Origin: Eledone cirrhosa
Lineage: Eukaryota
NCBI GenBank assembly: GCA_964016885.1
Contig: OZ024754.1
Coordinates: forward strand, 1,054,001-1,118,000
DNA: 64,000 bases
Reading direction: 5' to 3'
Below, in pieces: positions 5,826 to 62,242 of the stretch (the first letter of the stretch is position 1; each line of letters starts with the position of its first letter). Both the position numbers and the translations under genes were made by a program. The notes beneath the pieces are model-generated. The model saw only the letters and a program-made list of their open reading frames with translations, made no database searches and was not told the DNA's origin.

Positions 5826-6636
5826 AAGCACCTAAGCAATAGCAATCAGCAGTGATAATCACAATTTTAAAAATTAGTAGCGATAAGTCGCATGTAGAAC
5901 GAAGGTCAAATTCACCAAAGCCCATGGAAAATTTTGCTTGCTACCAACATGCCGTTAAAAATGTTACGGCAAACGTATTTGACACATGCATCAATGGTGA
6001 TGCCGAGTTTCTGGAGAGGTATCTATAGAGATAATATGGTATAGAATAATTTTAACTATATTGAAAAAAAATATTCAGTATATAATAATTTTTAATATAA
6101 ATTAAAAGAATTTCCAGCGGAAAACAGGCAGGTTTCTACGTATAACAGGTAAATAAATGCTACAGTTCATATACAACTAAGTATTCAATCATCAACAGCA
6201 TGTTATCCACTTACAATGTTCTTTAGGTGTTCATTTGCTGCATTCTAATGTATTTTCTTGGTAGGTTATGAATATTACCAGTTAGTCGATCGATATATTT
6301 TTCATTTACACGTTGGTCACGTACTAATTTTTTCACGAATCTCCGTAATGAAGGATGAGTAATGGCAATAGGTTTATTACTTGCTGTATGTTGCATATTA
6401 TTTTACCCTGCTGCGTTTCCTTTTAATATCCATAATTTATTTATCTGAACAATTCTCTTTTATGTGCATTGCTTTTACAACGACGAGTGAGCTGAAAAGC
6501 GCTAAAGTTGACTGGTCTCTCTCTCTCTCTCTCTCTCTCTCTCTCTCTCTCTCTCTCTCTCTCTCTCTATATATATATATATATATATATATATATATAT
6601 ATATATATATATATATTTATTAAAATAACAGATTAA

Positions 6637-6686
6637 AGTTTAAGCAAAGAATCGCTGCTTTCACCCTTAACGGGATCTTCTGAAGC
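6637..6686 (-). ncRNA. Type-I hammerhead motif, U4A core (CAGAAGA)
   Basis: Minus strand: gctt CAGAAGA tccc gttaa gggt GAAA gca...tgc TT aaact. Confidence 0.6.
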
Positions 6687-7065
6687 GGAGATTCATTCGG
6701 TTTCCTAGTTAGAATTTTAGTCTACGACTTCAGCTATACCATTTACGTGGTTTTGTCTTTGCGTGCAATTGTTCTCCACGCTCCACATATGACGTATTAT
6801 CATCGTTTTTTCCGTTCATTGCCAGAGAACGTCTCTATGAACCACCTAAGAGAACATTAGTCTACGACTTCTTTTATACCATAAACGTGGTTCTGTCTTT
6901 GCGTGTAATTGTTTTTCTCCGCTCCTATTAATGACGTATTATATTCGTTTTTTCCCGTTCTTTGCCAGGGAACGTTTTCACGAACCAAAGTATCGTCTTC
7001 CTGTCTTCCTCCGGTTGCAACGTTTTTTGAAATATCCACTTCTGCGTTTACAGATTGACTTTGTT

Positions 7066-7116
7066 AGTTTCAGAAGATCCCATTAAGGGTGAAAGCAGCG
7101 ATTCTTTGCTTAAACT
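7066..7116 (+). ncRNA. Type-I hammerhead motif, U4A core
   Basis: agttt CAGAAGA t ccc attaa ggg t GAAA gca gcgattctt tgc TT aaact; three helices form; predicted cut after 7111. Confidence 0.7.
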
Positions 7117-7296
7117 TTAATCTGTTATTTTAATAAATATTTGCTCTACGGTTCTTATATATTTGATATATATTTATCCTTATCGAGTCCTCTTTGGATT
7201 TTAGTCTTCAAATTTATTATTATTACTATATATATATATATATATATATATATATATATATTTAAAAGAATAGAGGTGTAACACACAAGTTATGAT

Positions 7297-7553
7297 ATAT
7301 TGGTAAACGGAATAGAAAATGCTGACAAATTGTTCACAGTGAAAAATAGTTTAATTAGGAATAAGTGATAATTAGTAATAGTATTGGTTAGTATTAAATT
7401 ATTTTTGAAAAGCATTAGAAATGCGCAACCGGTAAAACTTAAAACCAAAACTTAATACTAACCAATACTATTACTAATTATCACTTATTCCTAATTAAAC
7501 TATTTTTCACTGTGAACAATTTGTCAGCATTTTCTATTCCGTTTACCAATATA
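7297..7553. repeat. About 100-bp-arm inverted repeat between (TA)n (PLE-type fold-back)
   Basis: 7297-7397 vs 7452-7553; related copy at about 55690-55853. Confidence 0.85.
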
Positions 7554-7873
7554 TATATATATATATATAGTAGAATAATCGAGTATCGAAAAATCGGCGC
7601 ACGAGTTCACGATAAACAAAATTCGATATGAGCGGCAGAGGGCTCAATAATTTAGATAAATCAGAGCTATAACTATCGTTAAAATACCGTCACACATAGA
7701 ACAAGTCTATAATCAACCGTACGACCGAAAAGTTGCGATCTGGAAGATTCGGGACACTCAGATAAAAAATCAATAAATCAATAAATCAAATGTGATATAT
7801 ATATATTTTATCTAAAGACATTTTTTCCAATCCCAACACGCCGTCCCCTCAATCTATTTTATTTCTCATTCTT

Positions 7874-7909
7874 TCTTCTGGTGAAGGACTAGCGTCCGAA
7901 TCGTTAAGA
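7874..7909 (+). ncRNA. Degenerate minimal hammerhead (A6G, GAAT)
   Basis: tctt CTGGTGA a ggac tagc gtcc GAAT cg TT aaga. Confidence 0.5.
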
Positions 7910-8410
7910 CCCTCTTCCTGCTATATTAAGCGTTAACCTAATATATACCTTCCATATACTGTACCGATTGTGTTGTTATTTCTGTTTACCTTTTACATAC
8001 ATACATACATACACATATATATATATATATATATATATATAATGTAAGAGGTGAGTTTTATTGGTGAACAACAAAGCAATGCAAATATCGGATAAGTAGC
8101 ACTCAACAGTTTATATATATATATATATATATATATATATATATATATATAGTATCACTCAACACTATATATATATATATATCAAATATTAAGCAAGCAA
8201 ACTAATCAATGAGGAGAGGAAAGTGATTAGCTAAGAAATACAAGCCAGTAGAAAGAGGGTTAGTGTGCTCGATGCGTATAGTTTGCAAGAGTGGAGAAGA
8301 AAGTGAGTAATTCGTAGAAAATATGCCTAGCAAAATTATTATATGCGGAGCTAAAAAGCGTGTATTATACGTCAGAGAAAACAACAAATTTTTGAATATG
8401 TATATTTACG

Positions 8411-59346: not shown

Positions 59347-60537
59347 TCTTGAAATGGAATCTTACGTAGAAAATGTTTTACGTAAGTTCATATTTTGGAC
59401 GTGACGAAACATATAACTGCTATAAACATTTACAGATATCTTTTAAAACATCTCCTGTGTATGATACAACCTGAGCACTCTCCGTGAATGAGCACTCTCC
59501 GTGAATGAAGACATCACAAATATAATTCAATATGGATTTCACTATTTAGTTTTCTTTAATAATAAAGAAAACTAGATCTAAAAATCTTTCATAACCTTTC
59601 ATGGTTACCACAAAAATTTCACCGAAGCGAAGGACCCCAAATACTTCAAGTATGAAGAGCATCTATAAAACTCAACATTTTCCTATCTATCCTACTACTC
59701 ACAAGTGAGTAAGTGCATTACTATAGATAAATACACACATGTGTGATACCATATCCTCAGAAATACTTTTCTAAACAGAAGTGAAACGACCATGACATAG
59801 CATCCTTTCTCAACATCTTTTATATCTACAAAAACAAAACATCTTTTCTTTAAAACATTGCTAACTCTAAGCCTCATCTACAAACTATAAACAAAGTATG
59901 GACCTGCTATCCATCTGTTAACCACACAATGTTTAATGCCAGATACCGTACAAAACATTTTGAACAATCCTTCCATATTCAAAGTGCAACACTCTAGAAA
60001 TACCTTGATATTTCTTCCCTCACAAATCTACCTACAAACATTCAAATCGCATATTAACCCCATTGACAGTCTATTCTCACACACTAACCACTGTACAAAC
60101 CACTCAGCCTAACTAATAAAAATAATTTATAAACTTGTTTAACATTGAAGCACATAAATGAACATTTTGTTAATTGAAGTTGACTTGCTATTAATGTCTT
60201 TTAAATGAATATTTATTTGTTTGGTTGCAAGGAAATGGCCGTGTTCATAGCCATTGTAGGCCTTCTGAGACCGGTGACATTGATATGGTTAATGTATTAA
60301 CATTTCTTTGAATTCTGTTTGATTAATCAATGGTAACTTGTAACATCTTACATCCCCAAAATTCATACTAATATTCAGAAAGAGCTAAAATAATGTTAGT
60401 GTGCCGTAAAGAGAAGAAATGAGTAATGCTTTGAGCAAGACCTTTGGGGTTGGGGTTTGAAGGGCTTGGCATAAAACATTAGATATTTCCTCTCATTTTA
60501 TTATTTGAATTGAATTAACTCTTGCCAAAACATTTGA

Positions 60538-60716
60538 ATTGGCAGTATCGGTGGAGGGTCGGACGCCATGCTTTCCAGCATAGTTACGTCCCTTTACGGT
60601 CTGAGTTCAAATCCCGTCGAGGTTAACGTTGCTTTCATCCTTACGGGGTCGATAAAATAAAGTACCAGTAATGTACTGGTAAATTGCTGGCTTTGTGCCT
60701 AAAGTAGAAACAATTA
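60538..60716 (+). mobile_element. tRNA-derived SINE (4796 family)
   Basis: A/B boxes and core. Confidence 0.85.
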
Positions 60717-60949
60717 GTTTAGAGGATTAAATTTGATTGTATCAAGGAGTTTGCATAGTCAACCGATGTATTGCCAGAGGCGTTAGAGCATCGGATTAAA
60801 TGTTTGGTGGTGTTTGTTCTGCACACTGGTCAACTTTGCTTTACATCCTTTCGGAATCCATAAATAAAAGACAAATACAGGGGGTGGTGGATTGGCAGAA
60901 TCATTGTAGAGCCAGACGGGATGCTTTGGGGATATCTCATCTGACTTTA

Positions 60950-61225
60950 TGGAGGTGCATGGTAAGGGTGTTGGACTTGCGATCATAATGTCGTGGGTTC
61001 GATTCCTGGGCTGGGTTGCGTTTTGTGTTCTAGAGCAAAACACTTCATTTCACGTTGTTCCAGTATATCCAGCTGTAAATGAGTACCAGCAATAGCTGGG
61101 GCTTTAACCCTGCGATGTACTGGCGTCTTATTCAGGGGTGGGGGCTTGTACTCTCAGTCGCATCACCGGGATAAGCATCCGTCTGATGAGCCTCCTGGTT
61201 TCAGACAGACTTTAGTCTTTAGACT
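60950..61225 (+). mobile_element. tRNA-derived SINE (second family)
   Basis: gggttcgattcc B-box, gagcaaaacacttcatttcac, ccagctgtaaatgagtacc. Confidence 0.75.
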
Positions 61226-61659
61226 TAGACATGTGACCTTCTACGTTCTGGATTCAAATCTCGATTTCTGTCATCAGAAAGTTGTTAAGATTTTGTTAGG
61301 AGATACAACTGGCATAAAATATTAGCAATGGCAAAACCAGTAGAAACATAGTTTTCTTGGCCCCGTCTCAGGATCGGTTCCTTTTCTTGGCAGAATTGCT
61401 ATAGTTTGGGATGCCATTGTGGTGTTCAAATCTTGTCGAGATTAGCTTTGCCTTTCATCTTTCCGCTGGCGATAAAATAAAGTACCATCAAGTACTAGTG
61501 TTGGTTTACCGAACTTTGGGCTACCCCTAAATTTGCTAGACATATGTCTAAATTAGGAATATATATAATTATCCGGATGTAGTTGACGGAAGAAAGAAAA
61601 GAATACTCACTACTGAAGTAGAATTTAAATATTCATTTTACTATGGCTAAATAATAAGT

Positions 61660-61707
61660 CTTGTATTCTGGAGTTTCACGTGCTTGTTCACAGGGTCATC
61701 AGACAAG
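61660..61707 (-). ncRNA. Degenerate hammerhead within a fold-back (about 61620-61762)
   Basis: Minus strand: cttgt CTGATGA ccctg tgaacaag cacgt GAAA ctccagaat acaag. Confidence 0.45.
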
Positions 61708-62084
61708 CAGGTGAAACTTCAGAAAAACAAGACTCATTATTTACCATTTATAAATTGAATATATATATAGGAAAAAGTTTAACCCCGACGACAGAGCTCT
61801 GCCGTCGGGGTTAAACCTTTTACTATTACCCACTCTACTACCCTAAGTATTCAGTACTCTGGTACGTTATGGTCCATCTAGTTCCTTACCACACTTCCTT
61901 CGTTATATATATATATATATATATACGTATATATATATATATATATATATATATATATATATATATATATATATATATATATATATATATATATATATAT
62001 ATATATATATATATATATGTATATATATGTATATATATGTATATATATATATATATATATATATATATATATATATATATATAT

Positions 62085-62242
62085 ATAAATAACAGATTAA
62101 AGTTTAAGCAAAGAATCGCGATTCTTTGCTTAAACTTTAATCTTTTATTTTAATAATATTTGCTCTACGGTTCTTAAATATTTGATATATACTTATCGAG
62201 TCCTCTTTGGATGTTAGTCTTCAAAATTATTATTATTACTAT
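62085..62242 (+). mobile_element. Family Y mini fold-back, inverted inside hammerhead loop III
   Basis: Palindrome centred at 62118/62119 (aatcg|cgatt), then gctc...gagt hairpin and (TA)n. Confidence 0.8.

Follow-up and report, generated by a model that had tools for sequence, protein, structure and literature searches.

A 64,000-nucleotide (nt) window of the Eledone cirrhosa genome (GenBank assembly GCA_964016885.1, contig OZ024754.1, positions 1,054,001 to 1,118,000 of the forward strand; hereafter the window) contains copies of a short, bulged RNA hairpin that, judged from the proteins to which it can be linked, belongs to Hydra-clade Penelope-like elements (PLEs). In full-length elements the hairpin occurs twice before the start codon, its pairs covary, insertions end at a fixed spacing upstream of one or the other hairpin with a TA at about -6, and inverted insertions combine a long end with a short one, the short end lying before hairpin 1 and the long end before hairpin 2. 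Based on these observations, we propose with a probability of about 0.7 that the hairpins may be docking sites in the RNA that set internal starts of reverse transcription, two per RNA, and that twin priming takes place on a cut (TA)n target. The window has a GC content of 33% and abundant (TA)n runs; the host genome measures 3.0 Gb.

An initial annotation of the window had listed 11 stretches in which a stem closed by RCTC and GAGY follows a hammerhead ribozyme. All of them exist on the strand given, 24–128 nt before a (TA)5 run, although two starts were misplaced, with the paired strand starting at 21037 rather than 21047 in one case and at 36364 rather than 36344 in the other. The motif itself is genuine and can be described more narrowly than in that annotation: inspection and folding define a stem with a 2-nt bulge on its 3′ side, [G/A]CTC-Y...R-UY-GAG[C/U]-RCTNT, in which RCTC, an upper stem, a variable loop, the partner strand, UY, and GAGY follow one another from 5′ to 3′. 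The T(T/C) noted before GAG is thus present, but the annotation had not recognised it as a 2-nt bulge (1 nt at 31359) separating two helices; RNAfold gives the bulged fold at 10 of the 11 stretches and a perfect stem at 8892. The reported covariation of the outer pair applies to nine stretches (A-T in 5/11, G-C in 4/11), the remaining two having an A.C mismatch. Likewise, a predicted hammerhead lies upstream in the same copy at six stretches (canonical at 12904, 28764, and 34378; variant cores at 21037, 47293, and 56267) but not at the other five. Inversion has cut off the hammerhead side at 8892, 14401, and 31359, and no core was found when looked for in the same copy upstream of the 8267 and 36364 hairpins.

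The annotation's view of a second cis-element common to PLE families with unalignable untranslated regions (UTRs) is confirmed, as is covariation, and a reverse transcriptase (RT)/endonuclease site or an end signal, as it proposed, is likely the role of this element. It had overlooked the Hydra clade, the second copy before the ATG, and the position of the insertion ends on the 5′ side of the hairpins: the hairpin opens the tail, and short-ended copies lack it. The positional enrichment that it anticipated was found in 200 kb outside the window, chosen regardless of the motif and half of it adjoining the window, where 15 of 21 bulged stems are near (within 130 nt of) a (TA)5 run against a background of 12%. 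With the window included, this proportion is 24/30, compared with 13/146 for seven swapped-stem controls; the loose motif without upper stem gives 19/30 in the window versus 32/235 for six controls. Genome-wide, a pattern of the motif plus ATGGA has 1,729 matches and its control has 4. Coding constraint is ruled out by the location of the motif 5′ of the ATG. Readings as a selenocysteine insertion sequence, an iron-responsive element, or a histone stem-loop were dropped on inspection against their consensus. Rfam returned only two hammerhead matches in the 20 loci scanned, and in a window scan at gathering score no family over the hairpins was among the matches listed (the best 150 of 226).

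Six of the 11 noted families, which we designate by a window coordinate of their hairpin, could be linked to an open reading frame (ORF): 12904, 14401, 21037, 28764, 31359, and 34378. In the 34378 family, a 1.7-kb 3′ UTR leads to an ORF with an RT, a CxCX5C linker, and a C-terminal endonuclease (loci L099/L100); the same layout is found in the single 784-codon open frame of L137/L138, which contains YRDD and a C-terminal YIG endonuclease. N-terminal motifs are RWR/DKT in L137 and L301, RWK/DKT in L101, and RWR, a variant of RWK, in L287. The motifs CNCPDRSIC, CNLC, and CKH of L137 and CNCRVSANC, CNLC, and CPH of L099/L100 match CxCX5C, CxxC, and CxH, respectively. As PMC8557442 defines the Hydra clade by RWK, DKT instead of DKG, a CxCX5C linker, and CxxC and CxH around conserved E and N, we assign the carriers to this clade. 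Insertion into (TA)n and the occurrence of tandem and inverted copies, also Hydra-clade traits, are present here. When 8,000 candidates were scored against the L137 protein, 2,214 qualified as relatives.

In loci L137–L141, a full-length Hydra element forms tandem arrays of recent origin, whose near-identical units repeat every 3,531 bp, and in contig depth the ends of Hydra elements exceed the 5′ parts of the ORF by orders of magnitude. Predicted hammerheads are canonical in the 12904, 28764, and 34378 families and have variant cores in the 14401, 56267, 47293, and 21037 families. A putative U3-A8 core (TTGANAA) with a long stem II occurs in the 3′ UTR of L137, at window 56102-56178, and in the L079 family, and U4C/U4A cores are predicted elsewhere.

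The order in full-length copies is hammerhead, hairpin 1, hairpin 2, and ATG. This double hairpin before the ATG was found in the 14401, 21037, 28764, 34378, and 31359 families and in L101. In the tandem full-length element of the 14401 family, the 3′ UTR and hammerhead are followed by the short end, which lies 8 nt before hairpin 1, and then by the long end, which lies 6 nt before hairpin 2; the ATG comes last. This order explains why short and long ends occur in the same family, each end lying just before its own hairpin. Among hammerhead matches of one family, selected by Rfam blind to the hairpin, 10 of 18 stop ~7 nt before the hairpin, and 8 of 18 extend ~72 nt beyond it. Filtered TA junctions fall 3–9 nt before a hairpin in 80 of 81 cases, counted in three families with a full read-through reference; 13 of them, from the 28764 family, were drawn from three subfamily references, and some may be counted twice. 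This filtering, directed against noise from TA-rich references, left eight window-family references with 0–3 junctions each. Short ends lie at -6 in the 12904 family (4/5) and at -7 in the 47293 family (3/3, inverted partners). Of the 11 metagenomic loci (see below) in which a read-through copy could be compared with a terminal one, 9 end 1–7 nt before a hairpin, one being judged by eye. For the 34378 family, hairpin 2 was predicted before it was found, 7 nt past the long end and followed by the Hydra ORF, in one of two pattern matches (L301); an earlier pattern had yielded no non-TATA read-through of this family in the 20 matches examined out of 22. Contigs from three public sequencing runs show loose TA ends at the position of the long end, one of them also at that of the short end. 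As each insertion end precedes one hairpin, the PLE tail, ~55–125 nt long, corresponds to the spacing between the hairpins. In L147, L154, L160, L162, and possibly L321, the long end finishes in 2–4 head-to-tail repeats of its last 12 nt before (TA)n, resembling template realignment; telomerase-like repeat addition was set aside because of its rarity, with 5 cases among the 1,118 long ends counted in one family.

The motif was also found in metagenomic sequences, where 77 loci were picked by protein alone and 39 had at least 100 nt before the ORF start. These 39 Hydra 5′ UTRs contain 48 sequence-defined sites, compared with 1.0 after shuffling (maximum 4 in 200 shuffles); the reverse strand has 2 and a set of 353 ORF windows has 16. 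Two sites occur in 19 UTRs, one in 10, and none in 10; among the 17 with a hammerhead core, the corresponding numbers are 14, 2, and 1. Hairpin 2 lies 42–86 nt before the matched ORF start. Moreover, of six Hydra consensi in file S7 of PMC8557442, one coral and two sea-cucumber elements have the exact motif, which in Hydra-1_Ajap occurs twice at the 5′ start. The copepod consensus has variants, one with a compensatory middle pair and one with a mismatch, and none was found in the 5′-incomplete consensus of Hydra-1_Amil. Six 9-letter words from the 3′ strand, compared with the whole supplement, gave seven matches, four of them in Hydra hairpins; line breaks may conceal others.

Pairing was assessed in 42 sites (27 clusters) without a pairing rule, the nearest CTC being taken as partner and two near-identical loci and edge sites being excluded. 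Directly above the bulge, all 42 sites have a pair (C-G 29, U-A 7, U-G 5, G-U 1), which is Watson-Crick in 36, compared with 25.5 in shuffles that ignore relatedness (p 1e-4). For the two pairs that follow, the numbers are 27 versus 13.3 and 24 versus 11.3, and for the outer pair, which includes U-A among its states, 36 versus 31.9. Alternative bulge sizes produced no pairing above chance in the same sites. The T of the 3′ flank, which was not used for selection, is invariant in the 42 sites, and a TA starts at -6 relative to the hairpin in 23 of them. In a quick tree of 34 proteins (our own and metagenomic ones only), U-A and C-G states alternate, by eye, in about five separate places. As G-U pairs outnumber A-C (13 versus 2), the structure favours the sense strand. 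A further covariation count used 30 hand-picked hairpins and is biased. An element that anchors an RT would be a conserved, covarying structure of the template strand at a fixed distance from the first copied base, and both properties are present here, the second with genomic ends as a proxy.

Inverted insertions provide a further constraint. Among 76 inverted pairs from eight families, both ends could be classed as terminal in 47, and all 47 are long + short, with no long + long and no short + short pairs. About half would be expected to be mixed, because long and short ends occur at similar overall frequencies (96 and 117). The result is the same (37/37) in loci not selected via an end of the family concerned, and under a first-pass classifier all 8 window pairs were long + short. 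BLAST comparison revealed an asymmetry of at least 50 nt between the arms in 9 of 23 examined pairs, the short arm being the longer in four and the long arm in five; in L163, the short arm extends 1,050 nt and the long arm ~17 nt upstream of hairpin 1. Since the short arm is longer in some pairs, a single folded-back, long-primed complementary DNA (cDNA) is insufficient, and two primings are needed. In the 14401 family, 50 of 75 5′ ends lie 31–50 nt upstream of the hammerhead cut, 40 of these being inverted. More generally, 5′ truncations and inversion centres concentrate inside the hammerhead at many loci of the 14401 family and in the L241-type family. Strong-stop at the hammerhead cut was considered for the 14401 family and rejected, as none of the 75 5′ ends is within 3 nt of the cut.

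These observations suggest the following model. The RT-endonuclease would cut both strands of the self-complementary (TA)n target, and the protein would dock on a hairpin of the element RNA. Each free 3′ end would then pair with a UA 6–8 nt 5′ of the hairpin and be extended from inside the RNA, a start before hairpin 1 yielding a short end and a start before hairpin 2 a long end, with the stretch between them forming the tail. Use of both starts would amount to twin priming, for which a protein dimer might place a subunit on each hairpin. Joining of the resulting cDNA pair, often within hammerhead stems, would create an inverted insertion whose tail is confined to one side. A wider version, which we put forward tentatively and at somewhat below even odds, is that of a two-seat template: a dimeric, telomerase-related RT-endonuclease, one subunit per hairpin, might prime both strands of a cut (TA)n on one RNA at fixed internal sites, the PLE tail and inverted copies might in general arise in this way, and the hairpin might be a portable signal of ~30 nt for internal, DNA-primed initiation.

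Several observations weigh against internal initiation at two docking hairpins or limit its reach. Genomic ends cannot separate it from cleavage of the RNA at the same places, as they fit both alike, and one RNA sequencing run (n = 1) yielded a single contig. CTC and GAG are invariant because they were used to define the sites and thus contribute no covariation. In 29 of the 76 inverted pairs, one end is a read-through or could not be classified, and the classifier was corrected, for a misread upstream ACTC, after a first pass that had given 45 long + short and 7 long + long pairs. Two loci terminate early, L181 by 87 nt and L168 by 13 nt; L191 has a hammerhead and no hairpin site; and the Hydra family of L241–L269 has a fixed long end, yet only a degenerate second hairpin. 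No ORF link was made for five of the 11 noted families (8267, 8892, 36364, 47293, and 56267), and no motif is recognisable in the Hydra-1_Obim consensus. Finally, two ends also occur, without the motif, in Neptune-like PLEs of this genome, so the hairpin is not a general PLE rule.

A rival reading is that the hairpins are processing signals for RNA 3′ ends, a host nuclease or the element's own protein cutting 5–9 nt before each hairpin, followed by end-primed reverse transcription. It fits the fixed spacing and the sense-strand structure equally well. However, RNAs cut independently should also give long + long and short + short pairs, and there are none in 47; moreover, the one PLE assayed in vitro starts within the RNA, and extra 3′ sequence leaves the product unshifted (PMC11167929). 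We therefore regard processing as unlikely. A role of the hairpins in single-stranded DNA (ssDNA), where the GIY-YIG endonuclease would recognise them in a transposition intermediate, cut nearby, and trim the ends, is also unlikely, despite several points that speak for it: Craig et al. attribute the tail to resolution by the endonuclease (PMC8557442), both sequence and structure guide GIY-YIG Ssn nucleases to ssDNA hairpins (PMC11893778), and G-T pairs are tolerated in DNA too. If trimming acted on a single folded-back, long-primed cDNA, the long arm should always be the longer, which fails in four of the nine asymmetric pairs, and long ends would require hairpin 2 to be copied and then removed.

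The distance of 42–86 nt between hairpin 2 and the ORF start is what a function in translation, packaging, or as an internal promoter could account for, with insertion ends lying near the hairpins only through a shared short 5′ region. Such a function is very unlikely to be the explanation, because tails vary in length (~55–125 nt) and yet each end stays 3–9 nt from its own hairpin, with the TA peak at -6. Chance palindromes in AT-rich repeat ends have next to no plausibility. The loose motif alone is indeed common, with 61 matches in the window, 22 of them near (TA)5, but chance is refuted by the control stems, by the excess of sites in blind-chosen UTRs (48 versus 1.0) and genome-wide (1,729 versus 4), and by covariation. 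We thus favour hairpins that would dock the protein and set two internal starts.

The copies in the window illustrate these arrangements. In the ORF-linked families, the hairpin 1 at 12904..12943 (-; bulge TC) belongs to a long-ended arm of a family tied to a Hydra ORF; a predicted canonical hammerhead core lies upstream of it (13006..13048, -), and the inverted insertion spans 12855..14226, with its long end at 12855 and its short end at 14226, 6 nt before the hairpin position. At 14401..14424 (-; bulge TT), the inverted insertion with a long and a short end (14353..14548) has its centre within hammerhead stem II, and tandem full-length copies of the family (L137) show hairpin 2 before the ATG; a mutated copy at 61832..61855 (+) has a short-ended inverted partner near 61770 (-). 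The hairpin at 21037..21082 (+; bulge TC), whose hairpin 2 and Hydra ORF start are seen in L078, has further copies at 7143..7188 (+; short-ended inverted partner 6613-6684, -), 49662..49707 (-), and 62162..62201 (+; short-ended inverted partner 62035-62119, -). For 28764..28783 (+; bulge TC), hairpin 2 and the Hydra ORF start are found in L277, L285, L287, and L299, and the inverted insertion with a short and a long end (28391..28846) includes two predicted hammerheads, 28441-28487 (-) and 28660-28706 (+). An additional hairpin of a 28764-like family at 56768..56788 (-; bulge TA) is accompanied by a putative hammerhead (56839-56883) and a short-ended partner near 57086 (+). The hairpin at 31359..31378 (-; 1-nt bulge), with a short-ended inverted partner ending near 31470, has a second copy at 56548..56567 (+) that is absent from the initial annotation, and in L019 the family shows a long variant hairpin 2 and a Hydra ORF start. 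Upstream of 34378..34399 (-; bulge TT), a type I hammerhead is predicted at 34452..34496 (-; Rfam RF00163, 29.1 bits, under the gathering score of 34); the Hydra ORF is upstream in L099/L100 and hairpin 2 in L301.

Among the other families, 47292..47326 (-; bulge TT), the hairpin of the 47293 family, has a predicted hammerhead variant at 47379-47417, and 56267..56326 (+; bulge TT, outer A.C) has the U3-A8 variant at 56102-56178 and a short-ended partner near 55881 (-). The hairpin at 36279..36364 (-) has a long upper part, that at 8892..8912 (+; bulge TA, with the perfect-stem fold also possible) a short-ended inverted partner, and for neither was an ORF link made; for 8267..8292 (-; bulge TC, outer A.C), neither a hammerhead core nor an ORF link was found. 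Additional hairpins lie at 7642..7667 (-; bulge TT) and 51183..51241 (-; bulge TC), with (TA)n 72 nt and 47 nt further on, respectively. Hydra ORF fragments at 21177-21440 (+) and 11602-11808 (-) are not contiguous with hairpin copies. At 9072-9658 and 15460-15742, a palindromic insertion of another family shows two short-type ends, and a related end comes after a Hydra endonuclease in L048. The window also contains a 363-codon open frame at 58255-59346 (+) matching a rhodopsin-family G-protein-coupled receptor (7tm_1, E 1e-34), a host gene exon amid the repeats, and, at 47859-49063 (+), a frameshifted 3′ part of a non-long-terminal-repeat retrotransposon with a zinc knuckle, a restriction-like endonuclease motif, and a weak zf-RVT match, to which pieces at 1362-2103 are related.

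Neptune-like PLEs were found through a Pfam GIY-YIG search and have a CX4CxxC linker and the Pfam GIY-YIG domain (L079, L085, L086, and L091, all on the minus strand; window 7490-7560 and 55790-55860). The double hairpin is absent from the four of their families with two TA ends. Two Neptune-like families have a long-range stem in the 5′ UTR, CTCGTGT/ACACGA, the strands of which begin ~9–11 nt after the short and the long end; this is a different architecture from the Hydra double hairpin.

How PLEs choose their start sites, and why inverted copies have a tail on one side only, is an open question (PMC8557442, PMC11167929). PLEs are the sister group of telomerase, and here a conserved RNA element, occurring from corals to this genome, predicts both insertion ends to within a few bases by its two copies. 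The position of the hairpin makes the start-site question directly testable and gives a rule for annotating the boundaries of Hydra elements. Moreover, the hairpin is a candidate for the minimal RNA handle of an RT that initiates within its template.

Twin priming is known from L1, where each strand of the cleaved target primes cDNA synthesis on a single RNA and an inversion results, the second primer annealing at variable internal sites. Inversion would likewise result from two primings here, with the difference that both starts would be fixed by RNA structures. Structured RNA fixes the start or stop of an RT in the R2 3′ UTR, telomerase RNA boundary elements, and hepadnavirus epsilon. The hairpin has no sequence or Rfam match to these, is tandem-duplicated, and lies just 3′ of a proposed internal, DNA-primed start.

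The published Hydra clade, as described in PMC8557442, shares the protein motifs, the hammerhead (predicted, and in part variant, here), the (TA)n target, inverted and tandem copies, and the one-sided tail. That account ascribes a 30–40 bp tail to endonuclease resolution, whereas the tail here is ~55–125 nt and equals the hairpin spacing; the word "hairpin" does not occur in its accessible text, though hairpins are visible in its Hydra consensi. The hammerheads of PLE pseudo-long terminal repeats (pLTRs) and retrozymes (PMC4209133, bioRxiv 10.64898/2026.07.22.740005) occupy the same element region on the same strand, and the accessible portions of both mention neither "hairpin" nor "stem-loop"; the hairpin described here appears to be a separate, non-catalytic-looking element. 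The available text of PMC5737381 has no passage on such an element. No description was found in the literature searched or in Rfam, though Lunse et al. 2017, Repbase notes, and the supplements of PMC11167929 (figures) and of the bioRxiv preprint could hold a mention. The host elements are already known; for the cis-element and its connection with the two ends, no earlier description appears to exist.

The closest likeness is to the Poseidon PLE of the green anole, for which PMC11167929 reports two adjacent internal start sites downstream of the hammerhead that bound the tail, a need for RNA 3′ of the starts, extension on both strands, an AT-rich target, and a predicted dimer. Paired internal starts bounding a tail, the need for 3′ RNA, the AT-rich target, the use of both strands, and the predicted dimer are what it has in common with our proposal. 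The Poseidon starts, however, are located within the ORF, in an AC-rich stem-loop lacking homology to the target, and the same text names no conserved positioning element. In contrast, the Hydra elements described here have their putative start sites in the 5′ UTR, with TA microhomology to the target and a conserved bulged stem after each.

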